The position numbers and the translations under genes were made by a program. This document shows positions 6,663 through 63,968 of a stretch of DNA of 64,000 nt, one piece after another. The DNA comes from Escherichia phage vB_EcoM-Pr121LW, in sequence record MH752840.1; one strand, 5' to 3'. Below the pieces are notes generated by a model. It searched no databases. It was given only the letters and a program-made list of their open reading frames with translations, and was not told the DNA's origin. Positions within the stretch are counted from its first letter, which is position 1; each line of letters starts with the position of its first letter.

Positions 6663-7214
6663 ATGATTAGAGCGCCATTAGATAATTTATTTCTTGAGAA
6701 GCTGGAGCTTGATGGTGTTGAGATCTTAATTGCTGCAAAGCTAGAGCTACCGACAGGGACTGTCAGGGTGTGCTCAGGCACTGGTGTTGTAGTAATTGAG
6801 GGTCAACATTTTATAGGGATAGGTGGATCAGCAACATTAACTGCTGTGTCTGAGAAAGATGCCACCAACTTCGGATCTGTGGTAGCAACATTGAACGGGT
6901 TTGATCCTAAGTATGTTGGTGATCTACTGAAGACGGAGTATTCTGGTTGTCGTGCCACGTTGTACATTACCGCTATGGAGAATGGTCTGCCTGTTACAAC
7001 TAATGGTTTGTTTGACGGCCTTATAACAGATATGGCTATTCAGACAGGTGAGAACAGTGCTTTGTCCATATCCATCTCTTCCATCTTCAACAGTTGGTTA
7101 AGAGGTTTTCCTTATCGGTACACGGAGGAAAGCCACAGCTCAAGAAACGATAATGACAGATTTTTTAAATATGTGGATCAGGTGGCGAGCCGCCCGATCA
7201 TTTGGGAGGTTTAA
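6663..7214 (+). CDS. minor tail protein (tail-tip complex)
   Basis: ATG at 6663 with RBS gagga, coupled to upstream stop; synteny with lambda-type tip genes. Confidence 0.5.
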   Translation: MIRAPLDNLFLEKLELDGVEILIAAKLELPTGTVRVCSGTGVVVIEGQHFIGIGGSATLTAVSEKDATNFGSVVATLNGFDPKYVGDLLKTEYSGCRATLYITAMENGLPVTTNGLFDGLITDMAIQTGENSALSISISSIFNSWLRGFPYRYTEESHSSRNDNDRFFKYVDQVASRPIIWEV

Positions 7215-7639
7215 TGAGCACACATCCTCGTTTAGTAGATTGGCAAGAAAGATTGTGGAAAGTGTTTGACGAAGAGGCCACCATACCTTTTGAATGGGGA
7301 TTCCACGATTGTTGCACCTTTGCAGCCAAGTGTGTTGATGCCCAGTACGGAACAGATTTTCTTTCTAACTTCGAAGGAACGTATAAAACAGAGTTGGAAA
7401 GCAAAAGATGGTGCATGCTCCGTTTCAAAACCACACACCTGCCTACTATTTTTGATCTCTTTATGACTCGGCTGGATACTCATAAACAGGTTCAGCGTGG
7501 AGATATTGTCATTTTCGAAGGTCTGAACGGGCTCACCGCTGGTGTGTTCTGGAACAACCAGATTTGGGCGAAAGGTGATAAAGGGGTCTTTATGTTCGAC
7601 ATGAAAGATTCTATCGTTGTTGATGTCTGGAGGTATTAA
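7214..7639 (+). CDS. tail assembly protein, NlpC/P60-like (lambda K-like)
   Basis: ATG overlaps upstream stop (TAATG); FHDCCTF cysteine motif resembles NlpC/P60 active site; immediately upstream of J-like gene. Confidence 0.5.
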   Translation: MSTHPRLVDWQERLWKVFDEEATIPFEWGFHDCCTFAAKCVDAQYGTDFLSNFEGTYKTELESKRWCMLRFKTTHLPTIFDLFMTRLDTHKQVQRGDIVIFEGLNGLTAGVFWNNQIWAKGDKGVFMFDMKDSIVVDVWRY

Positions 7640-17394: not shown

Positions 17395-17709
17395 GTGGAG
17401 TTGGATTTGGCGGCATTGTACGGTATCTGCATGGGTACCGTTGTCCCGATCTGTGTATGGGCTTTCAACCAGTGGCACACCAAATGGAAAGGCATTTCCA
17501 AGAGGTTGGATGAACTGGAGAAAGACCTCATCTTAGTGAAAAACAGTATGGTTACAAAAGATAAACTTGATTCCGTTATCGAGACCCGGTTAAGCAAGCT
17601 AGAGGCCGATATTAACGACCTTAAGCAGGATGTCAGGACAGATGTCTCCGGTATCCGAGCTGATGTACAAAAGATTTTGCACATGCTCGTAGAGCATAGT
17701 AAAAGGTAA
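17395..17709 (+). CDS. membrane-anchored coiled-coil protein (i-spanin-like or fibre-associated)
   Basis: GTG start with RBS gaggagg; N-terminal TM helix LAALYGICMGTVVPICVWAF followed by heptad-rich helix. Confidence 0.4.
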   Translation: MELDLAALYGICMGTVVPICVWAFNQWHTKWKGISKRLDELEKDLILVKNSMVTKDKLDSVIETRLSKLEADINDLKQDVRTDVSGIRADVQKILHMLVEHSKR

Positions 17710-18853: not shown

Positions 18854-19120
18854 ATGAAACTAACTCAGTTTTTATGGGGACTGGTTGCGGCATCTGATGA
18901 CCCTACGAAAGTGTCCCAATCTAAGCTATGGTCAAACATAGGTATGGCGGTGATGACTGGGGTGTTTATTCATATGGGGTATAATGATACGCTTCCTGAA
19001 TGGTATGCGTGGATATATGCGCCTTCGGTAGCTTGCCCCCAGCTTATTAGCAAATTCATCTCGCTCCGGTGGGGTTGCCAGCACCCTGACCACGTTAAAA
19101 ACGAAGAGCAAAAAGCTTAA
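18854..19120 (+). CDS. small membrane protein
   Basis: 88 aa, hydrophobic segment IGMAVMTGVFIHMGY; RBS agagggtaaATG. Confidence 0.4.
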   Translation: MKLTQFLWGLVAASDDPTKVSQSKLWSNIGMAVMTGVFIHMGYNDTLPEWYAWIYAPSVACPQLISKFISLRWGCQHPDHVKNEEQKA

Positions 19121-35658: not shown

Positions 35659-35928
35659 ATGTTATACCAGCAATATGAACTTCGTGCAGAAAAAGAGTTA
35701 AATTTTGACAAAGATATTCACAGATATTATTATGGGAAAGTTAGAGGGCAAGCAAGAAAGTGTACTCCAACACTCTTTTATGCCAGCAGACGACTAGCGC
35801 CAGAAGAGGCAACAGCAGAAAGGGTTGCGTACAACTGGAGAGTCACGTATGATATTGACAGATCCGATGTGATATCTGTTTTGGAAAACTTTGAAAACAC
35901 TTACACACAAGTAGAGGACTTTTACTAA
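35659..35928 (+). CDS. hypothetical protein
   Basis: 89-aa ORF, RBS aaggag. Confidence 0.4.
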   Translation: MLYQQYELRAEKELNFDKDIHRYYYGKVRGQARKCTPTLFYASRRLAPEEATAERVAYNWRVTYDIDRSDVISVLENFENTYTQVEDFY

Positions 35929-37112
35929 TGTCAAGAAACGTATTTGAAAGTGGTCAAATCACTGTCCGTGAGTTGCCAGCTATCATTCAGTTTGCCCAGC
36001 GTCATAACCGATCTGTCCTGATTTTAGGACCAATGGGCGTGGGAAAGAGCCAAGTGATGAAGCAGATCGCCGATAATATGTTCGGTGAGCGAGATGATAA
36101 CTTGGTTGACGTGCGACTGTCAGATAAAGATCCTGCCGACTTATCTGGGCTACCTATCCCTGTAGAAGCGGATGGAACTACACGTACAGTATTTGCAATT
36201 CCAGAATTTTGGCCTGCGGATCCTGACTGGAGCGGAATTATCTTTCTGGATGAGCTCACTCATGCAGATAACTACCTGCAAAAGGTTGCAATGCAAATTA
36301 TGCTCGACCACAAGTGCGGTACCTATGCATTCCCTAAGGGTTCTGTTTTTGTGGCTGCTGGTAACCGTTCTACAGATGGTGCGGTTCTTTCGGCGCTCGA
36401 AGCCCCTCTGGCTAACCGTTTTATCATTGTAGAAGTTACAAGCAATGCAGAGGTGTTTATTGAGGACTACGCATTCCTTAATGGGGTGCACTCCTCTGTA
36501 ATTGGATATCTGAAAAGAGTTCCATCAGCTATCGATAATTATGAGGCCATGGCTGAGATTAATTGTCCATCTTTTGCCACACCACGATCTTGGGTTGCTG
36601 CATCTGATATCTTGCACGATTTTGACAGCGGTATTATTTCTGACGCTATGGCCCGTGTTCTTCTGCAAGGTGCTATCGGTCACACTGCAGCGGTAGAGAT
36701 CTGGACTTACCACACCAAGAAACGCAACTTACCGGAAATCGGTCGGATTATGGCAGGAGGTTGCAAAGAATATGTAGGTCCTAAACAGCCAGACATCTTG
36801 TGGATTCTTGGATCTGAAGGCTGTATCGCTATTCGTAATATGATGGAAAATGCAAGTATCTCCGACGAAGATCTTGTTAGCTGTGTGGCAAACTTCCTCG
36901 ATTTCCTTTGGGAAAACTTCAAGGACGAGAACCGAGATTTTGTATTCTCGGTCTTTATGGCGATGATGAAACCTAATGCCTTAGGAAATGCCTTGCTTAT
37001 CGGTAAAGGTCGTGACAAGATTGTTGCTCAGCTGATCAAAGCATACCCAAACCTGATGAAGATTGTAAAAGAGTTTGGTGAAGAGTTTAGCGCCATTTTG
37101 GCTAAAGCTTAA
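35928..37112 (+). CDS. AAA+ ATPase, MoxR/AAA_5-like
   Basis: Walker A LILGPMGVGKSQV and Walker B IIFLDELTHAD; size and layout typical of MoxR-type ATPases. Confidence 0.65.
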   Translation: MSRNVFESGQITVRELPAIIQFAQRHNRSVLILGPMGVGKSQVMKQIADNMFGERDDNLVDVRLSDKDPADLSGLPIPVEADGTTRTVFAIPEFWPADPDWSGIIFLDELTHADNYLQKVAMQIMLDHKCGTYAFPKGSVFVAAGNRSTDGAVLSALEAPLANRFIIVEVTSNAEVFIEDYAFLNGVHSSVIGYLKRVPSAIDNYEAMAEINCPSFATPRSWVAASDILHDFDSGIISDAMARVLLQGAIGHTAAVEIWTYHTKKRNLPEIGRIMAGGCKEYVGPKQPDILWILGSEGCIAIRNMMENASISDEDLVSCVANFLDFLWENFKDENRDFVFSVFMAMMKPNALGNALLIGKGRDKIVAQLIKAYPNLMKIVKEFGEEFSAILAKA

Positions 37113-37121
37113 GGAGGTTGT

Positions 37122-37502
37122 ATGGCTAAAGTAGGTAAGCGGGGGAACTACCTGGTGATATTGACCGAGGAGCCGGAGAAGGAGTATGAATGCAGCTCCA
37201 CTTGCGTGATCGATATCCGAGAAAAAGATGTAGATGAAATCTGGTTTAAAATATTGGACGCTTGCGATAGCAGTGATTATTTCTTCATCTATGTCAACGA
37301 TAAGGCTGGGTTCTTCCATGACGACGGAGAGTTGCCGTATGAAATCTATGAACTTGTAGAGGCTTGCCATCGTGGAGATGCGGAGTTGTTTGGCTTACGG
37401 CTGAAAAGCGGTAAATTCTTCTATCAAGATGAGTGCATGAATCTTCATAACTTTGTAGAGGGAACTTGCAACGATGGAGAGATTTTGGCACACTACGATT
37501 AA
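37122..37502 (+). CDS. hypothetical protein
   Basis: 126-aa ORF, RBS aaggagg; followed by terminator. Confidence 0.45.
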   Translation: MAKVGKRGNYLVILTEEPEKEYECSSTCVIDIREKDVDEIWFKILDACDSSDYFFIYVNDKAGFFHDDGELPYEIYELVEACHRGDAELFGLRLKSGKFFYQDECMNLHNFVEGTCNDGEILAHYD

Positions 37503-37514
37503 TTTCTAAGACCA

Positions 37515-37541
37515 CCCCGCTTCGGCGGGGATTTTCTATTT
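37515..37541 (+). terminator. rho-independent terminator
   Basis: ccccgcttcggcgggg hairpin (identical to the one at 11375) followed by attttctattt. Confidence 0.7.
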
Positions 37542-37550
37542 GGAGTTATT

Positions 37551-38051
37551 GTGAAAATTAAGATCTTTGCTATTATTTTGAGCGCATTTTTATCGCTGCC
37601 TGTTGTTGCAGCACCAAAACAAAAAGTATACCATACTTGCAAGCCATCAGATACTAAGGAAAACATTCTAGCATGCAATATCTACAGGGAAGCTAGAGGG
37701 GATGGCACGATGGGTATGCTGGCATCTGGGTTTGCCACCCTAAACAGGAAATCTCATCCCAAATACCCAGACACTATAAGAAAGATTGTCTACCAACCTA
37801 ATCAGTTTTCGTGGACAAACTACGGCAAAACTTTTAAGGTGACAGAAAAAGATTCATGGGATCACGCTAAAAGTCTTGCAAAGATGCTTCTAAAGGTCTA
37901 TAATAACAACCATGTTGCATACATGGCTATGGATATAACAGGTGGAGCAACACACTACCATACAACCAAAGTACGACCGAAATGGGCAAAAAAGATGCAG
38001 AGGACAGCTCAATTCGGGAGCCATATCTACTACAAGGAGCGCAATAAATGA
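37551..38051 (+). CDS. secreted cell-wall hydrolase (SleB/Hydrolase_2-like)
   Basis: N-terminal signal peptide MKIKIFAIILSAFLSLPVVAAP; NIYREARGDGTMGMLASGFATLNRKSHPKYPDTIRKIVYQPNQFSW matches Hydrolase_2 core. Confidence 0.55.
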   Translation: MKIKIFAIILSAFLSLPVVAAPKQKVYHTCKPSDTKENILACNIYREARGDGTMGMLASGFATLNRKSHPKYPDTIRKIVYQPNQFSWTNYGKTFKVTEKDSWDHAKSLAKMLLKVYNNNHVAYMAMDITGGATHYHTTKVRPKWAKKMQRTAQFGSHIYYKERNK

Positions 38052-40030
38052 TCGTAAACAGTAATGAAACTAAAGCGGTACTGACCGGGAATATGGAGGT
38101 AACCAGGGGATCAATTTCTCTGAACAAAGAGACTTTTGGGCTAATCATTAAAGGGATTTACGAAGATAAGGTGCTGGCAAGCTGCCGTGAACCAATCTTC
38201 AATGCTGTGGACTCTCATGTTGAGTCTGGACGTGGTGATGTACCGATCATCATTCACTCTCCTACAGACCTTGAACCATACTTCTTTGTACAGGACGTTG
38301 GATTGGGCATGTCAGAAGAGATGGTCCGCAACACTTTCATGAACCTCGGGGAGTCAACCAAGCGCAACAGCAACGCTCTGGTAGGTAATAAAGGTGTTGG
38401 TTCAAAGGCTCCGTTCAGCATGGTGGACACTTTCGATGTGATCAGCGTGCATAACGGTGTTGAAAGCACATATCTATTGTTCTTGGATCAGGGTATCCCA
38501 AACGTTACCAAGATCCGCGAGCGGAAGACTGAAGAGCACAACGGGGTAAAAGTTCAGTTCCATGTTAAGAAAGAGCATGTCCTGAAATATCGCACTGCTA
38601 TTGCATCGTGCTTACGCTATGCGAAGTTTCCGTTCACCGTCACCGATCCCATGACCAGTAAGATGTTAGAAGGTGACAAGGTTGAGGCACAGTATCGTTA
38701 CGAGAAGGATGGCTGGAAAATGACCATCCTGAAAGGTTATACCAGTTCTGATGAGAGCCGTGTTGTGATGGGTCACCAACCTTACCGCTCTAAGTTCCTG
38801 GAGACATTGACCGATTACCCTGCAATCTGCGTGGAAATTCCTATTGGGGATTGCAATATTAACCCTGGGCGTGAATGGACCATAGAGGGCCATGACGACG
38901 GTGGATTCCAGGATCGCCTGGAGGCCTTTGTCAAAGAAGGTATACGTCTTCGCGGGGCAGAAGTTGTTGCAGAACTGGAGACGGCAAAAACCTCCGCAGA
39001 AGCACGTGAAATGATGAAGAATAGTGGTGTGTTCGGACACATCTTCGGCAAAAACTTTATGTGGAACCGTTGGGAAGAAACAGGGCTTGGTGACTTAGGC
39101 GATTGTGAAATTTTCGCTGGCGGCTTAAATAAGGGCCGCATAGGCTATGCTCGTTACGGAAAGTCGGAGTTCTTACGAGGTGTATACCTTGTATTTAACG
39201 ACGGAGACGGCAAATATAACCGGAATAAGTGTAACTACTTAAGCGAGATCACCGGACGCAACGTTTTCTATTGCCGTAACACGGATCTGGTGGAAGAGTT
39301 TAAAGAAGCGGCACACCACCCGTTCTTTGCAGATACGGTCAAATTGTTATCAGAACTCCCTCGCCGACCTGTCAAGAAAGGTGAAACAAAAACTCGTTAT
39401 GAGCCAGGCTATTGGGTTAAAAAACTTGAGAAGGATGGTTACTTCCGCCGTGAGCGTATTACTAAGGCAGAGTTCCGGAAGATTAAACACTGCATCCCTT
39501 ATGAGGGTGATATCCAACGTGGAAGTTGTTGGCTGGGGCAGATGAGTAACATCTACCAGCAAAATTATGACCGTGTGCGTGCGGCACTTCAGATTCCTGA
39601 AGGTGAAGATCTGTACCTGGTATCAGAATCTCGTCTGCTTTGGACTGGTCCTGATTGCCAGTATGTTACAGAGAAAAATGTGGAACATTTGTTGAAAGAG
39701 GACGCCTGGCAATTCTTACTGACTCGCGCAGCAAATGAAACTTCATATGACAGCCTGTATAGACAATTAGGGAAAATTATCCCCATGCAAGATTTTGGAA
39801 ATTATCGGCCACATTTCCACAAGTGGGAAGGTAACACCGCGTGGAAGCACAGTGAGCTAAATCATCGTGCCAAAATCTTAATCGCTAACCGAGTCAAGTG
39901 CGGGAAGGCCTATATTGCAAGATTGGAAAAGAAATATCCGCTTTTGAAGCATGTGGGCTTGAAATATTGGGACACTCCTGCTATGATTGAATACCGTGAA
40001 CTGATCGACGCAAAGAATAACACCAAATAA
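38048..40030 (+). CDS. rIIA: rIIA-like protein with GHKL-type ATPase motifs
   Basis: N-box-like EPIFNAVDSH, G1-like VQDVGLGMSEEM, G2-like GNKGVGSKAPF; 660 aa; adjacent to rIIB-like gene. Confidence 0.55.
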   Translation: MIVNSNETKAVLTGNMEVTRGSISLNKETFGLIIKGIYEDKVLASCREPIFNAVDSHVESGRGDVPIIIHSPTDLEPYFFVQDVGLGMSEEMVRNTFMNLGESTKRNSNALVGNKGVGSKAPFSMVDTFDVISVHNGVESTYLLFLDQGIPNVTKIRERKTEEHNGVKVQFHVKKEHVLKYRTAIASCLRYAKFPFTVTDPMTSKMLEGDKVEAQYRYEKDGWKMTILKGYTSSDESRVVMGHQPYRSKFLETLTDYPAICVEIPIGDCNINPGREWTIEGHDDGGFQDRLEAFVKEGIRLRGAEVVAELETAKTSAEAREMMKNSGVFGHIFGKNFMWNRWEETGLGDLGDCEIFAGGLNKGRIGYARYGKSEFLRGVYLVFNDGDGKYNRNKCNYLSEITGRNVFYCRNTDLVEEFKEAAHHPFFADTVKLLSELPRRPVKKGETKTRYEPGYWVKKLEKDGYFRRERITKAEFRKIKHCIPYEGDIQRGSCWLGQMSNIYQQNYDRVRAALQIPEGEDLYLVSESRLLWTGPDCQYVTEKNVEHLLKEDAWQFLLTRAANETSYDSLYRQLGKIIPMQDFGNYRPHFHKWEGNTAWKHSELNHRAKILIANRVKCGKAYIARLEKKYPLLKHVGLKYWDTPAMIEYRELIDAKNNTK

Positions 40031-40040
40031 GGAGACAGCT

Positions 40041-41246
40041 ATGATTTTCATCTACGAACATTTCAAAACTCGTAAAGAAGCACGCGACCGCCGTGCAGAA
40101 CTTGAGAAGAAGGGTTTCACATGTGCTATTGAGAAAGGTACTACAACATGGACACTGGCAGTAGGTGCCCCAGAGCTGTTTGATCCTGACCGAGACAGTG
40201 TCTGCTATACCCGTGAGGATTTTGAAACCCGCGAAGAGGCCCGTTTATTCCGCTACGGACTGGAAGACAACGGTAAGTACGCCATGATCTTAGATTCAGG
40301 AGAAGGTTCCGTTAAACGTTGGAGTGTGGTATACCCACTGTGCGTTGTTCACGGTGTGGGGTTCACTGGAGTAGCAATCAAGTCAGAAGAACCTTCAGTA
40401 GAAGTCAAAGATCCGGTGCTGGAGGTGGTAAGCAGTGTTTCTCAACAACAGACTCGAAGCATAGAGCCTTTAGTAGTTATTTGTGGAGAACTTCTCCAAA
40501 TCACCTGCAACGAAGGTATTTTTGAAATTCGCCGCAGTGAAAGTGAAGAAGTTTACCAGAAAGTCTTCGACCATATCTCTGTTCAGAAATATGACGAGGC
40601 AATTGGTGAAATCCTTGTCTGGTTGGAACGCAAGAATGAGTTCACTACACTTGCAGACAACCTGATTATGAAAGATGGTAAGCTCTATTACTACGGTGTA
40701 GAGATGCAATCTACCATTGCAAAGAAAATTGAGGAAGATTATGTAGATGGAACACTGGACGACCGATATGTTAAATTCCTTGTCCGTCTGCTACGCAACC
40801 CGTCTGCAAAATCTGTGAACATGCTCTACGATTTCATGCAGGCTAATGACATCCAGGTTGCAGAAGATGGTCGAATCATTTGCTATAAAGGGGTTCAGTT
40901 TAACGGAGGCAAGTGGGTGGATTGGCACAGCGGTAAAGTTCCACAATACCAGGGTGCTTTTGTATCCATGCCTCGTAACTTTGTAGAAGATGATCCGGAA
41001 GCTGCGTGTTCTTATGGCCTGCACTGCGCCAGCAAAGAGTATGCAGCTGGCTATGGCACCGTAATGATGGTTATGGTTGACCCTGCGGATGTGGTTAGTG
41101 TGCCATACCAACACAACAGTGCTAAGTGCCGTGCATGCCGCTACGAAATCGTAGCAGCACCGGAATCACGCAAAGATGGCGATCCGATTGAATACGTAGT
41201 TGACCGTGATGGTAACATCATCGACATTATCTACGAGGAGGCGTAA
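40041..41246 (+). CDS. rIIB: rIIB-like protein
   Basis: C-terminal half (RLLRNPSAKSVNMLYDFMQANDIQVAEDG..., SYGLHCASKEY, VDPADVVSVPYQHNSAKCRACRYEIV) parallels T4 rIIB as recalled from memory. Confidence 0.5.
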   Translation: MIFIYEHFKTRKEARDRRAELEKKGFTCAIEKGTTTWTLAVGAPELFDPDRDSVCYTREDFETREEARLFRYGLEDNGKYAMILDSGEGSVKRWSVVYPLCVVHGVGFTGVAIKSEEPSVEVKDPVLEVVSSVSQQQTRSIEPLVVICGELLQITCNEGIFEIRRSESEEVYQKVFDHISVQKYDEAIGEILVWLERKNEFTTLADNLIMKDGKLYYYGVEMQSTIAKKIEEDYVDGTLDDRYVKFLVRLLRNPSAKSVNMLYDFMQANDIQVAEDGRIICYKGVQFNGGKWVDWHSGKVPQYQGAFVSMPRNFVEDDPEAACSYGLHCASKEYAAGYGTVMMVMVDPADVVSVPYQHNSAKCRACRYEIVAAPESRKDGDPIEYVVDRDGNIIDIIYEEA

Positions 41247-42616
41247 TGGAAAAAGGGCAGTATGACGTAGGCACAGATGCTGCCCTCATTGCAATCATGA
41301 GCGGTGAGAATGTCTTCGTTTCAGGACCCGCAGGTTGTGGGAAGACGTATCTCATCAACATGATCCAGTCCATGTATGGAGACTCTTGCATAACGGTTGC
41401 CCCGACAGGGGTAGCCGCATTAAACGTTAATGGAGCAACAGCACACCGAACATTCGATCTTGCAGCAGGTGTGAGCATGGAGTCGGACTGGACTGCAATA
41501 AGGGCAAAAACAGCAAAGCCTTTGAAAAGCAAGGCATTTACCATCCTAATTATCGATGAAATCTCTATGATCCGTGCTGATAAGTTTATAGAGATGGATA
41601 GGAAACTCCGCTTCCTTCGAAAAAATGACAAACCTTTCGGAGGCATACAGGTCATATTGTTTGGCGATTTTTACCAAGCACCTCCTGTTGTCTCTTCTAT
41701 GGAGAAGGAAGCCTACTTCAACTTCTACCATACGGACCTGTGTTGCTATACCGAATCTTGGAAAGAGCTTGACCTCCACAACATAGCCCTAGTAGATCAG
41801 TTCCGACAGGAGTCTATTCGATTTGCCACAATGCTCAACTGTGTTCGTGAGGGTCGTCGCATAAAAGAGGTTGTAGCAGAACTTAATGCTCGTTGTTACA
41901 AAGGCGGTGTACCAACAGACGCTCTCACAATTTGCGCCACCAACAAACAAGCGGAGGAAGTGAACAGAAGGTTCTATGATGCCATCAACGCCCCAGAAAA
42001 GGTATACACTGGTGAAATGAAGGGTAAGTTTCCCTCCACCCTGCCAGTTGAGCAGGAGATGAAGTTGAAAATTGGCATGAAAGTTATGATAACCGCCAAC
42101 GATGTTGACCCGACGCACAAAGTACCTTATTATGTTAACGGAACACGTGCCACAATTGTTAAATTTAAGAACAAGGCGGTGGTGGTAGAGCTTGAAGATG
42201 GAACACAGGTTGACATAGAACAGAGGTTGTGGGAGAATAACGAGTATAAGCCATCTCAAAGATACAACATTGCAGAAAGGAAGATGGAGAAGTTTATAGA
42301 GAGGGTAGTGATTGGATCATACAAGCAACTTCCTCTGAAATCTGGGTATGCCGTAACATCTCATAAAAGTCAAGGACTTACGCTAGATTGTTACAACCTG
42401 GACCTTGGAAAGAACGGAGCTTTCTCTCCTGGGATGACGTATGTTGCTTTGAGTCGAGTTAAGACAATACAAGGGATAAACTTGTTGCGTCCACTAAGAG
42501 AAGTTGATATTATTGTTGACCCGCGAGTCGTAGAGTTTTACAATACAACATTCCCTGACTTAGACAAAATTGTCAGGAAAGATTTTGAAACCAGAGCAGA
42601 AGAGGGGGACGTATGA
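41246..42616 (+). CDS. SF1B DNA helicase (PIF1/Dda/RecD-like)
   Basis: Walker A VSGPAGCGKTYL, Walker B ILIIDEISM, C-terminal SH3-like region; 456 aa. Confidence 0.7.
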   Translation: MEKGQYDVGTDAALIAIMSGENVFVSGPAGCGKTYLINMIQSMYGDSCITVAPTGVAALNVNGATAHRTFDLAAGVSMESDWTAIRAKTAKPLKSKAFTILIIDEISMIRADKFIEMDRKLRFLRKNDKPFGGIQVILFGDFYQAPPVVSSMEKEAYFNFYHTDLCCYTESWKELDLHNIALVDQFRQESIRFATMLNCVREGRRIKEVVAELNARCYKGGVPTDALTICATNKQAEEVNRRFYDAINAPEKVYTGEMKGKFPSTLPVEQEMKLKIGMKVMITANDVDPTHKVPYYVNGTRATIVKFKNKAVVVELEDGTQVDIEQRLWENNEYKPSQRYNIAERKMEKFIERVVIGSYKQLPLKSGYAVTSHKSQGLTLDCYNLDLGKNGAFSPGMTYVALSRVKTIQGINLLRPLREVDIIVDPRVVEFYNTTFPDLDKIVRKDFETRAEEGDV

Positions 42617-63596: not shown

Positions 63597-63968
63597 ATGG
63601 AATTTATTATTTTGGCTGTATTGGTTGCCTTGTTTAACGCCTGGATCGCTGGCAAGATAGGTAGATCCGCCTTTTTATGGTTTATTATATCTATTTTCCT
63701 GGGGGTGGTTGCAACTATTGTATTGGTTATCCTTGCAATTGTTGACAAGGGGAATAATAGAAAGGGTAAAGTATTTTCAGACCTGTACGACGCTCAAACG
63801 TTTGTCAACGCCTATTATAGTGATCTTCCAGTCTCCCTACGCTGCAGCCTGGCACAACAGGTTTTTGATGAGGCTAAAACCAGAGATCAAGCCCACGAGA
63901 TATGTTTAACTGAGGCGGATCGCCTATTTGAGAGGAATAGAAAATATGTGGGCCAACCGTTTAAATAA
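63597..63968 (+). CDS. membrane protein
   Basis: ATG 63597 with RBS aaagagg; two hydrophobic helices. Confidence 0.45.
   Translation: MEFIILAVLVALFNAWIAGKIGRSAFLWFIISIFLGVVATIVLVILAIVDKGNNRKGKVFSDLYDAQTFVNAYYSDLPVSLRCSLAQQVFDEAKTRDQAHEICLTEADRLFERNRKYVGQPFK

Follow-up and report, generated by a model that had tools for sequence, protein, structure and literature searches.

A predicted exported SleB-like hydrolase and the rIIA/rIIB genes of an rV5-like coliphage are probably accessory neighbours by descent

Introduction

In Escherichia phage vB_EcoM-Pr121LW (MH752840.1), a gene for a cell-wall hydrolase stands directly upstream of a gene pair of the T4 rII type, which raises the question of whether the three act together in host lysis or entry or are simply neighbours. 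The window, that is, the whole stretch of 64,000 nucleotides analysed here, comes from a Vequintavirus, an rV5-like coliphage. A first-pass annotation, made from the sequence alone, had put the hydrolase forward as a possible lysin or entry-associated enzyme. The naming of the trio is already known from the rV5 annotation, available since 2013, and from more than 100 genomes. The three genes are orthologues of rV5 genes 2 (hydrolase), 1 (rIIA) and 238 (rIIB), and these products, with identical sizes of 166, 660 and 401 aa, appear in Table S3 of the rV5 paper. The signal peptide of the SleB-like protein and its subfamily-wide conservation were described in 2020, and essentiality data for the trio are contained in a 2025 preprint (bioRxiv 10.1101/2025.11.20.689424).

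Results

Identity of the three genes

Three + strand ORFs were found at the coordinates given beforehand (37551-38051, 38048-40030 and 40041-41246), and the locus comprises the following features.

37515..37541, + strand: intrinsic terminator, CCCCGC-TTCG-GCGGGG then ATTTTCTATTT, from a terminator scan and direct reading of the sequence.
37542..37553, + strand: Shine-Dalgarno GGAG (37542-37545) and GTG start (37551-37553) of the hydrolase gene, from the sequence.
37551..37610, + strand: predicted Sec signal peptide (aa 1-20), MKIKIFAIILSAFLSLPVVA with cleavage before the following A, so that the mature protein would start at 37611; from hydropathy and pLDDT.
37611..38051, + strand: mature SleB/CwlJ-type (Hydrolase_2) lytic-transglycosylase domain, from Pfam, phmmer, AF2 and Foldseek.
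38048..40030, + strand: rIIA homologue, 660 aa, from PHROG 612, HATPase_c_3 and BLASTP against T4.
40041..41246, + strand: rIIB homologue, 401 aa, from PHROG 609, BLASTP against T4, alignment A2 and AF2.

Over this locus, 119 Vequintavirus records are 94-98% identical at the nucleotide level and are annotated as cell wall hydrolase, rIIA and rIIB; the hydrolase protein is 97.6-99.4% identical in the six closest records among the matches listed. The hydrolase gene is placed among early/middle replication genes, a long way from those for tail and baseplate, as the first-pass annotation had remarked of the tail genes. Profile searches were run for rIIA, rIIB and Hydrolase_2, and the Pfam and PHROG matches back all three of its family calls.

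The rIIA homologue matches PHROG 612 ('RIIA') with an E-value of 1.4e-123, residues 1-656 covering profile positions 1-722 of 725, and Pfam HATPase_c_3 with 34.9 bits (cut-off 25). Its GHKL ATPase domain is N-terminal, at about aa 26-190. BLASTP against T4 rIIA gave 28% identity over the N-terminal 198 aa (E 3e-21), and in this alignment the N, G1 and G2 boxes are conserved as ExxxNxxD (REPIFNAVD), DxGxG (DVGLG) and GxxGxG (GNKGVG). The GHKL-type motifs noticed at the outset are borne out by HATPase_c_3 and the T4 alignment.

The rIIB homologue matches PHROG 609 ('RIIB') at 2.3e-60, and PF26926 is the Pfam family precomputed for its homologues. The earlier rIIB call proved correct: BLASTP against T4 rIIB gave 36% identity over the C-terminal 204 aa (aa 172-371; E 3e-38). 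The conserved C-terminal domain spans aa 132-375 in alignment A2, and the N-terminus (about aa 1-103) is lineage-specific, with two beta-alpha-beta-beta repeats in the AF2 secondary structure. A SPOR domain was considered for this N-terminus and rejected, as Pfam SPOR reached 18.2 bits (cut-off 21) and matched only 2 of 15 family members; the Foldseek match to the SPOR domain of CwlC (1X60) covered only 42 residues with E 1.3.

The hydrolase is a single-domain protein of 166 aa. It matches Pfam Hydrolase_2 (PF07486) with 69.5 bits (cut-off 27; 4e-19; profile positions 2-100 of 100) and PHROG 938 ('endolysin') at 3.6e-27. The phmmer comparison with SleB (PDB 4F55) gave 4e-6 and placed YREARGD opposite YGESRGE. 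The AF2 model has a pLDDT of 88.3, with the domain above 90 and residues 1-20 at about 50. In Foldseek, SleB 4F55/4FET came out on top as the sole significant PDB matches (probability 1.00, target-normalised TM 0.72-0.79, E 1e-5 to 9e-5). Glu47 of the YREARG motif is nearly invariant in alignment A1, and its SleB counterpart would be the catalytic Glu157. Assignment to SleB proper was rejected: the NCBIfam equivalog TIGR02869 was matched at profile positions 83-201 only, with 47 bits where the cut-off is 236.5. As judged from sequence and predicted fold, the likeness to SleB is confined to the catalytic domain.

The signal peptide proposed by the first-pass annotation also held up on manual inspection. 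The N-terminus reads MKIK, a 15-residue hydrophobic core and then PVVA-A, with a Kyte-Doolittle maximum of 2.62 over residues 5-19 and low pLDDT over residues 1-20. The strongly hydrophobic core IFAIILSAFLSLPVV (KD 2.6) followed by VVA-A resembles a cleavable signal peptide. AXA-type signal peptides are present in the homologues of CR3, Spc35, phAPEC8, AV124 and EC152, and most of the 78 scored IMG/VR homologues have an N-terminal signal, SAR-like or lipobox segment, the SAR-like N-termini occurring in more distant homologues.

Expression signals

The terminator lies between the end of the upstream gene (37502) and the ribosome-binding site of the hydrolase gene. It is identical to t003, for which the rV5 paper (Table S4) gives a delta-G of -16.0. 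Mydovirus AV124, Seunavirus EC152 and Certrevirus CR3 have at the same position a GC-rich hairpin with a T-run whose sequence differs, so the position upstream of the hydrolase is kept across four Vequintavirinae genera. TTG is the start codon of the orthologues in AV124, EC152, phAPEC8 and Nernie. The upstream terminator, the GTG start and the absence of a recognisable promoter of the gene's own make a low hydrolase level probable, and the weak start right behind the terminator likewise suggests low expression.

Essentiality and virion composition

Genetic data were available from HIDEN-SEQ transposon sequencing of the Vequintavirus Bas54/MaxBurger, whose locus is 95.1% identical to that of the window; the data come from a preprint and cover one laboratory host and a few clinical isolates (bioRxiv 10.1101/2025.11.20.689424). 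Insertions hit 32 of 36 TA sites in the hydrolase gene bas54_0065, 90/101 in rIIA and 56/59 in rIIB, and all three genes are non-essential, the K-12 host being without RexAB. The gene for the lambda-R-type lysozyme (bas54_0202; 0/24 sites hit) and those for the Rz/Rz1 spanins (0/29 and 0/19) are essential in the same data set. Because the hydrolase gene tolerates insertion at most of its sites and the lysozyme gene at none, plaque formation neither requires the hydrolase nor can rely on it alone, and a role of the enzyme as principal endolysin is not supported by the genetics of the Bas54 orthologue. In 2013, gp89 had been named as the lysin (Kropinski 2013). In the close relative CarlMeissner, the gene annotated as 'endolysin' matches lambda lysozyme (PDB 1AM7) with E 1e-56, and a lambda-R-type lysozyme gene is present in 109 records of the genus. 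Genes for this lysozyme and for Rz/Rz1 are absent from the 64-kb window and so were out of reach of the first-pass annotation; in close relatives they are encoded outside the corresponding region. The two small membrane proteins near the tail fibres (17395-17709 and 18854-19120), earlier named as the only other lysis candidates, have orthologues classed as essential in Bas54, which gives that remark some merit. A Bas54 gene annotated as 'putative holin' is non-essential.

As for entry, the accessible part of the rV5 virion mass-spectrometry table contains no hydrolase peptides. For CB7, the accessible part of the virion analysis names proteins from the structural gene block, with CB7_55 as the sole exception mentioned, and does not name the hydrolase orthologue. 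Since virions assemble in the cytoplasm, a protein exported by Sec is unlikely to be a component of them. Together with dispensability in Bas54, this speaks against the entry-associated hydrolase that had been suggested as the second option.

Conservation and synteny

Values of dN/dS were 0.03-0.05 (about 0.04) in the hydrolase gene and 0.03-0.07 in the two rII genes. Such strong purifying selection implies that the hydrolase is of use to the phage under some circumstances, and every Vequintavirinae genus has the protein (PMC7344957). With protein identity down to about 50%, Vequintavirus, Mydovirus and Seunavirus still share the order hydrolase-rIIA-rIIB-helicase, and a small membrane-protein gene lies between hydrolase and rIIA in Seuna- and Mydovirus. 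Certreviruses have the hydrolase and no rII, and T5-like, phAPEC8/phi92-like, KPP10-like and pf16 phages have it without adjoining rII genes. Among 80 sampled viral loci, the hydrolase stood beside rII in 12, all close relatives; of 67 IMG/VR loci whose hydrolase is more distant, none has rII within 6 kb. The adjacency is a lineage-specific synteny and not a general module.

A small ORF of 51-62 aa with two TMDs (2-TMD) lies directly 3' of the hydrolase in Seunavirus EC152 and Certrevirus CR3/CB7, in Mydovirus AV124, whose record does not annotate it, and in 9 of 11 scored IMG/VR loci with 51-55% identity. No homologue of it was found in the window or in three CarlMeissner loci (up to 132 of 137.6 kb; best E about 0.1), and CR3_086 and the EC152/AV124 ORFs have no detectable homology to each other. 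In Seuna-, Mydo- and Certrevirus, hydrolase and 2-TMD gene together resemble an endolysin-holin pair, and the enzyme may there contribute to lysis more directly.

Discussion

We consider it probable (roughly three chances in four) that the locus holds an accessory, exported periplasmic transglycosylase beside accessory rII genes, and that they are neighbours by descent and not parts of one machine. The gene 2 product would be a SleB/CwlJ-family lytic transglycosylase, probably made at a low level, exported through Sec and probably cleaved after VVA, which would then act as a soluble periplasmic enzyme with a putative activity on the glycan strands of peptidoglycan through Glu47. SleB needs muramic-delta-lactam, which E. 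coli peptidoglycan does not contain; the substrate specificity of the phage enzyme must therefore differ from that of SleB. On this view it is neither the principal endolysin nor a virion enzyme for entry; host lysis depends on the separate lambda-R-type transglycosylase with the Rz/Rz1 spanins, and rIIA, with its GHKL-ATPase N-domain, and rIIB would be accessory genes of the T4 rII type. The benefit of the hydrolase would most likely be a conditioning or weakening of the sacculus, or an aid to lysis in hosts or growth states that E. coli K-12 in rich medium does not reproduce. The CB7 orthologue has been described as toxic when expressed (Buttimer et al., as data not shown).

Of the competing explanations, the one that deserves most attention, improbable as we judge it, is that the hydrolase is left over from an ancestral second lysis cassette of a signal-peptide endolysin and a 2-TMD holin- or pinholin-like protein; Vequintavirus would have lost the membrane partner, the enzyme now being redundant or kept for a side role. 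The 2-TMD ORFs downstream of the hydrolase in the other genera and their absence from the window and the CarlMeissner loci are what this predicts, but the low dN/dS speaks against a decaying remnant, and the small ORFs, partly without mutual homology, are only putative holins. Somewhat less probable still is that the hydrolase, possibly with translationally coupled rIIA/rIIB, serves the envelope or counter-defence under certain conditions only, being dispensable on E. coli K-12 and needed in particular hosts, in particular growth states or against particular defence systems. Purifying selection, dispensability in the laboratory, potential toxicity, the positionally conserved terminator and the weak start would fit such a tightly dosed accessory function. 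The T4 rII genes, which protect against RexAB-type abortive infection, offer a parallel, and a MoxR-like ATPase two genes upstream was recently reported as needed against 'DS-28'. Doubtful to a greater degree is a single envelope module of all three products, in which, for example, the exported transglycosylase would stay harmless as long as rIIA/rIIB keep the membrane energised, and depolarisation would trigger it. In its favour, the hydrolase stop and the ATG of rIIA overlap as ATGA, a sign of possible translational coupling, the gene order has survived in three genera, and all three genes share a terminator-attenuated transcript. Against it stand the many hydrolases without rII, from the Certreviruses to the distant IMG/VR loci, the T4 rII pair without such an enzyme alongside, and the membrane-protein gene that splits hydrolase from rIIA in two genera.

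Both roles proposed by the first-pass annotation are far less credible. That the hydrolase is the main endolysin, holin-independent by virtue of its signal peptide, with rIIA/rIIB setting the timing of lysis, would agree with the 'endolysin' label in PHROG 938 and several GenBank records and with the literature, in which CR3_087 is 'implicated in host lysis'. It is nevertheless largely refuted by the Bas54 insertions, and the gene sits behind a terminator among early/middle replication genes, with no holin-like gene adjoining it in Vequintavirus. Least credible of all is a virion-associated peptidoglycan hydrolase for DNA entry. Myoviruses often have a muralytic entry enzyme, but the locus itself yields no positive evidence for one; the Sec-type signal, the distance from the tail and baseplate genes, the dispensability in Bas54 and the virion data already given all count against it, and the baseplate cluster has candidates of its own in a gp25-like protein, a central spike 'tail lysozyme' and a DUF6950 protein.

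The value of this result is corrective, and it adds little as a discovery. The pipeline label 'endolysin', acquired via PHROG 938, misleads, since the essential lysin is the lambda-R-type lysozyme and the hydrolase is accessory. That rV5-like phages have two very different muralytic enzymes is relevant to lysin mining and to the engineering of lysis timing.

Comparison with known systems

With Bacillus SleB (4F55, 4FET) and the single-domain CwlJ, the hydrolase has in common the fold and the Y-x-E-[AS]-R-G motif with its Glu. SleB, however, has an N-terminal peptidoglycan-binding domain in place of which the phage protein carries its predicted Sec signal peptide, and sequence identity to SleB is only 21-24%. 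Exported endolysins are known in a signal-peptide type, Lys44 of Oenococcus phage fOg44, and in a SAR type, P1 Lyz and phage 21 R; these reach the periplasm via Sec and not through holin holes, as predicted for the hydrolase. SAR anchors are rich in Gly/Ala, whereas the hydrolase N-terminus, with an I/L/F core, Pro at -4 and VVA-A, is more like a cleavable signal peptide. In contrast to those endolysins, the hydrolase is dispensable, the essential lysin being the cytoplasmic lambda-R-type lysozyme, and has no partner gene in Vequintavirus. The SleB-fold T6SS effector T6EC3, whose toxicity in the E. coli periplasm requires the catalytic Glu (PMC11148199), has a similar domain but is delivered between bacteria by the T6SS and is accompanied by an immunity protein; it shows that domains of this fold can harm E. 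coli from the periplasmic side.

As in the window, rIIA precedes rIIB in T4, among early/middle genes, although the T4 pair has no adjoining hydrolase gene. Beyond the N-terminal domain, the two rIIA proteins have diverged past BLASTP detection, and the N-terminus of T4 rIIB matches HTH families, unlike the beta-alpha-beta-beta repeats seen here. The closest counterparts are gp2, gp1 and gp238 of rV5 and their equivalents in about 119 Vequintavirus genomes (e.g. bas48_0065-0067 and bas54_0065-0067), which have the same order, lengths and terminator t003; from the rV5-type orthologues, the trio differs by strain-level substitutions only.

Gene content of the locus

The three open reading frames (ORFs) claimed for 37551-41246 by the first-pass annotation are present on the plus strand at exactly these coordinates, in the following setting.

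35928-37112: MoxR-like AAA ATPase, upstream of the trio
37122-37502: acidic protein of 126 aa, upstream of the hydrolase; T5.083 homologue according to the rV5 table
37515-37541: strong intrinsic terminator, listed as t003 in the rV5 paper; follows the acidic-protein gene and lies immediately 5' of the ribosome-binding site of the hydrolase
37551-38051, plus strand: hydrolase, 166 aa, GTG start
38048-40030, plus strand: rIIA, 660 aa
40041-41246, plus strand: rIIB, 401 aa
41246-42616: Pif1/Dda-type helicase, downstream of rIIB

The hydrolase stop codon overlaps the rIIA start codon in the sequence ATGA. The 4.5 kb around the trio are 94-98.6% identical to about 120 Vequintavirus coliphage genomes, Escherichia phage MiataMamis being the best match. 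Since Vequintavirus records label the trio ‘cell wall hydrolase / SleB’, ‘rIIA’ and ‘rIIB’, and since Table S3 of the rV5 paper names the same genes (gene 2, cell wall hydrolase, 166 aa, Hydrolase_2; gene 1, rIIA, 660 aa, HATPase_c_3; gene 238, rIIB, 401 aa; Kropinski et al. 2013, PMC3606486), the observation is correct and already in the databases, and the trio is a known feature of rV5-like phages. Sixteen unannotated records (MG0656xx) that carry the name ‘Campylobacter phage’ and give C. jejuni as host are also ~95% identical to window 37000-41500; these are probably rV5-like coliphages that were wrongly labelled or isolated together with Campylobacter phages.

The hydrolase and its export signal

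The hydrolase call is borne out by the Pfam Hydrolase_2 profile (69.5 bits, cut-off 27) and by the structural model. A phmmer comparison with the catalytic domain of B. cereus SleB (4F55) gave an E value of 4e-6 and paired YREARGD with YGESRGE, and the glutamate of this motif, Glu47, is nearly invariant across the aligned homologues. SleB structures 4F55 and 4FET are the sole significant PDB neighbours of the AlphaFold model (pLDDT 88.3), with a probability of 1.00 and target-normalised TM scores of 0.72-0.79. The term ‘SleB-like’ fits the catalytic domain only: orthology with spore SleB was rejected, the protein scoring 47 bits against an equivalog cut-off of 236.5 and having no N-terminal peptidoglycan-binding domain.

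The N-terminus consists of MKIK, the segment IFAIILSAFLSLPVV (Kyte-Doolittle maximum 2.6) and a VVA/A site, and residues 1-20 are unstructured in the AlphaFold model. Distribution was surveyed by tblastn on phage genomes (1335 records) and in IMG/VR (258 confirmed relatives), which replaced a word-indexed protein search that had returned only 10 relatives. AXA-type classical signal peptides occur in all homologues checked from Certrevirus, Seunavirus, Mydovirus, phAPEC8-like and T5-like phages. Among the 78 IMG/VR homologues scored, most begin with a signal peptide, a lipobox or an SAR-like anchor rich in Gly/Ala, and about 11 are short forms (128-134 aa) with neither N-terminal extension nor export signal, these counts being approximate as the script output was corrected by eye. 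Because the homologues share such N-terminal signals, predicted export is a conserved trait of this hydrolase branch.

Lysin and entry roles

On present evidence, the hydrolase is not the lysin, one of the two roles first proposed for it. CarlMeissner, a close Vequintavirus relative with a complete genome in the BASEL collection, encodes a separate 156-aa ‘endolysin’ homologous to lambda lysozyme R (PDB 1AM7, E 1e-56), as well as Rz/Rz1-type spanins that adjoin the terminase gene. This lambda-R-type lysozyme is present in 109 Vequintavirus records and is the same enzyme as rV5 gp89, described as ‘an obvious lysin’ (Kropinski et al. 2013, PMC3606486); it maps outside the 64-kb window and was therefore invisible to the first-pass annotation. 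Bas54 (MaxBurger), a Vequintavirus with matching gene coordinates and 95.1% identity over the whole 3,696-bp trio, has been subjected to transposon-insertion sequencing (HIDEN-SEQ) in a preprint (bioRxiv 10.1101/2025.11.20.689424). In that study, the lambda-type endolysin (0/24 TA sites hit), the i-spanin (0/29) and the o-spanin (0/19) were essential, whereas the ‘putative cell wall hydrolase’ was hit at 32 of 36 TA sites and was non-essential, as were rIIA (90/101) and rIIB (56/59). The contrast between hydrolase and endolysin indicates that plaque formation on E. coli K-12 does not require the SleB-like enzyme and that this enzyme does not suffice for it. The mean insertion read count of the Bas54 hydrolase, 916, was the highest among its neighbours (148-416); its disruption may be mildly advantageous in the laboratory, or the gene may be an insertion hotspot.

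The other proposed role, that of a virion entry enzyme, is unlikely, because a protein predicted to be Sec-exported leaves the compartment of virion assembly. The gene also sits in the replication/early-middle block, outside the tail block. No hydrolase tryptic peptides are present in the accessible portion of the rV5 virion MS table, and the virion proteins that the accessible portion of the Certrevirus CB7 virion study names do not include the hydrolase orthologue CB7_83; that study gives CB7_55 as the only structural gene lying outside the structural gene region.

The baseplate/tail-fibre cluster encodes another product called ‘cell wall hydrolase protein’ (window 7214-7636, plus strand; 99% identical to bas48_0030 of a BASEL phage). 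In Pfam it matches DUF6950 only and no known muralytic family. The Bas54 orthologue was hit at 17 of 18 sites, being non-essential on K-12, and was depleted together with neighbouring fibre genes in a clinical isolate (bioRxiv 10.1101/2025.11.20.689424).

Holin candidates

A gene for a membrane protein of 51-62 aa with two transmembrane domains (TMDs) lies directly 3' of the hydrolase in Seuna-, Mydo- and Certrevirus, and the CB7 protein has been proposed as a class II holin (Buttimer et al.). The AV124 and EC152 proteins share 46% identity and belong to PHROG 24442. This gene has no counterpart beside the Vequintavirus hydrolase, which overlaps rIIA directly, and a tblastn search for a relocated ORF in the window and three CarlMeissner loci (covering the 137.6-kb record up to 132 kb) found none, the best E value being ~0.1. 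The genes considered are as follows.

L010:5036-5191 (Mydovirus AV124 locus): two-TMD gene, unannotated in GenBank
L011:5036-5209 (Seunavirus EC152 locus): two-TMD gene
L006:4977-5165 (Certrevirus CR3 locus): two-TMD gene
Window 17395-17709, plus strand: small membrane protein beside the short tail fibre genes; bas54_0037
Window 18854-19120, plus strand: small membrane protein beside the short tail fibre genes; bas54_0039
Window 63597-63965, plus strand: ‘putative holin’ of BASEL genomes; bas54_0115; 98% identical in amino acids to its counterpart in CarlMeissner

HIDEN-SEQ classed the Bas54 ‘putative holin’ as non-essential (27 of 28 TA sites hit), and the true holin of rV5-like phages therefore seems to be another gene. 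Both bas54_0037 (1/20 TA sites hit) and bas54_0039 (0/19) were essential in the same screen, although polar effects on essential downstream fibre genes could equally account for this. By analogy with T4, in which holin t directly follows gene 38, one of these tail-fibre-adjacent membrane proteins is a candidate holin.

Expression of the hydrolase

The rV5 paper lists no promoter between t003 and the next predicted one ~10 kb downstream. A GC hairpin with a T-run, differing in sequence, occupies the same position in AV124 (L010:4464-4484), EC152 (L011:4463-4486) and CR3 (L006:4404-4436), so that the position of the terminator, not its sequence, is conserved across four Vequintavirinae genera. 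Of five lineages compared, four have a GTG or TTG start codon in the hydrolase orthologue. As a literature search found no Vequintavirinae transcriptome data, expression timing is judged from gene layout, the terminator and the lack of a recognisable promoter. From sequence features, we infer that the terminator and the GTG/TTG starts may have been selected because they keep expression of an exported, potentially toxic enzyme low and dependent on read-through. Within the hydrolase ORF (window 37876-37904, plus strand), 144 bp before rIIA begins, there is a sigma-70-like site, TTGCAA-17-TATAAT (10/12); this candidate promoter, a consensus match only, could drive rIIA and rIIB independently of the terminator-attenuated transcript.

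The rIIA and rIIB proteins

Both rII calls stood. The rIIA protein matches PHROG 612 over its full length (1.4e-123) and T4 rIIA by BLASTP (28% identity, 198 aa, E 3e-21), and the alignment with T4 rIIA visibly keeps the GHKL N box (ExxxNxxD), G1 (DxGxG) and G2 (GxxGxG). The rIIB protein matches T4 rIIB (36% identity, 204 aa, E 3e-38) and PHROG 609 (2.3e-60). A sequence search found no solved structures of rIIA or rIIB.

The N-terminus of Vequintavirinae rIIB (window 40041-40349, aa 1-103) consists of paired beta-alpha-beta-beta repeats with the motif F-x-[TS]-R-x-[ED]-A-R ... W, unlike that of T4 rIIB, which matches helix-turn-helix families (HTH_7, 5.6e-5). A SPOR (peptidoglycan-binding) identity, which would have tied rIIB to the hydrolase, was rejected: it was sub-threshold in Pfam, few members matched and there was no significant fold match. 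In the phrog_609 ‘RIIB’ profile (1055 columns), positions 806-1045 match rIIB and positions 29-186 match the GHKL N-domain of rIIA (window 38048-38620, E 1e-23). The family thus seems to be mixed or to include rIIA-rIIB fusions, a possible source of mis-annotation.

Proposed role and synteny

The trio genes are accessory and not decaying; their dN/dS of 0.03-0.07 against three relatives denotes strong purifying selection. They sit among conditionally required accessory genes, since the MoxR-like ATPase orthologue bas54_0063 (window 35928-37112) is reported to be required against the predicted defence system DS-28 of E. coli CFE311, and the helicase orthologue bas54_0068 (window 41246-42616) is non-essential on K-12 but strongly depleted in a clinical isolate (log2FC -6.3). 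SleB-fold domains can show Glu-dependent lethality in the E. coli periplasm (PMC11148199), and the CB7 hydrolase orthologue is reported to be toxic when expressed (Buttimer et al., data not shown). The gene calls of the first-pass annotation are retained on profile, BLASTP and structure matches; its suggestion of a main lysin or entry enzyme is not supported. Most probably, the hydrolase is a low-abundance, Sec-exported periplasmic protein with a cleaved signal peptide, acting as a lytic transglycosylase that nicks glycan strands via Glu47, accessory to a canonical system of holin, lambda-R-type transglycosylase and spanins. The phage could plausibly lyse cells faster or more fully in hosts or physiological states that laboratory cultures do not mimic; a part in host-phage or phage-phage conflict is also plausible.

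The order hydrolase-rIIA-rIIB-helicase is kept, at ~50% protein identity, in Vequintavirus, Mydovirus (AV124) and Seunavirus (EC152). A small ORF stands between hydrolase and rIIA in Seuna- and Mydovirus, and the ATGA overlap may allow translational coupling of the two genes in Vequintavirus only. A two-gene module of the 126-aa acidic protein and the hydrolase was also considered and rejected, the two not being adjacent in T5-like, Certre-, phAPEC8- and KPP10-type phages. Certreviruses retain hydrolase and helicase without rII, and the hydrolase occurs elsewhere, with no neighbouring rII, in phAPEC8/phi92-like, T5-like, KPP10-like and pf16 phages. Among 80 sampled IMG/VR loci, rIIA lies within 6 kb of the hydrolase in 12, all with a hydrolase at least 51% identical to that of the window, and in none of the 67 with more distant hydrolases; rIIB is also present in 11 of the 12, the remaining locus stopping at a contig end. 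Since rII adjacency is missing from these phages and distant loci, and from T4, which, unlike Vequintavirus, has no hydrolase beside rII, the pairing is a lineage-specific synteny and no general module.
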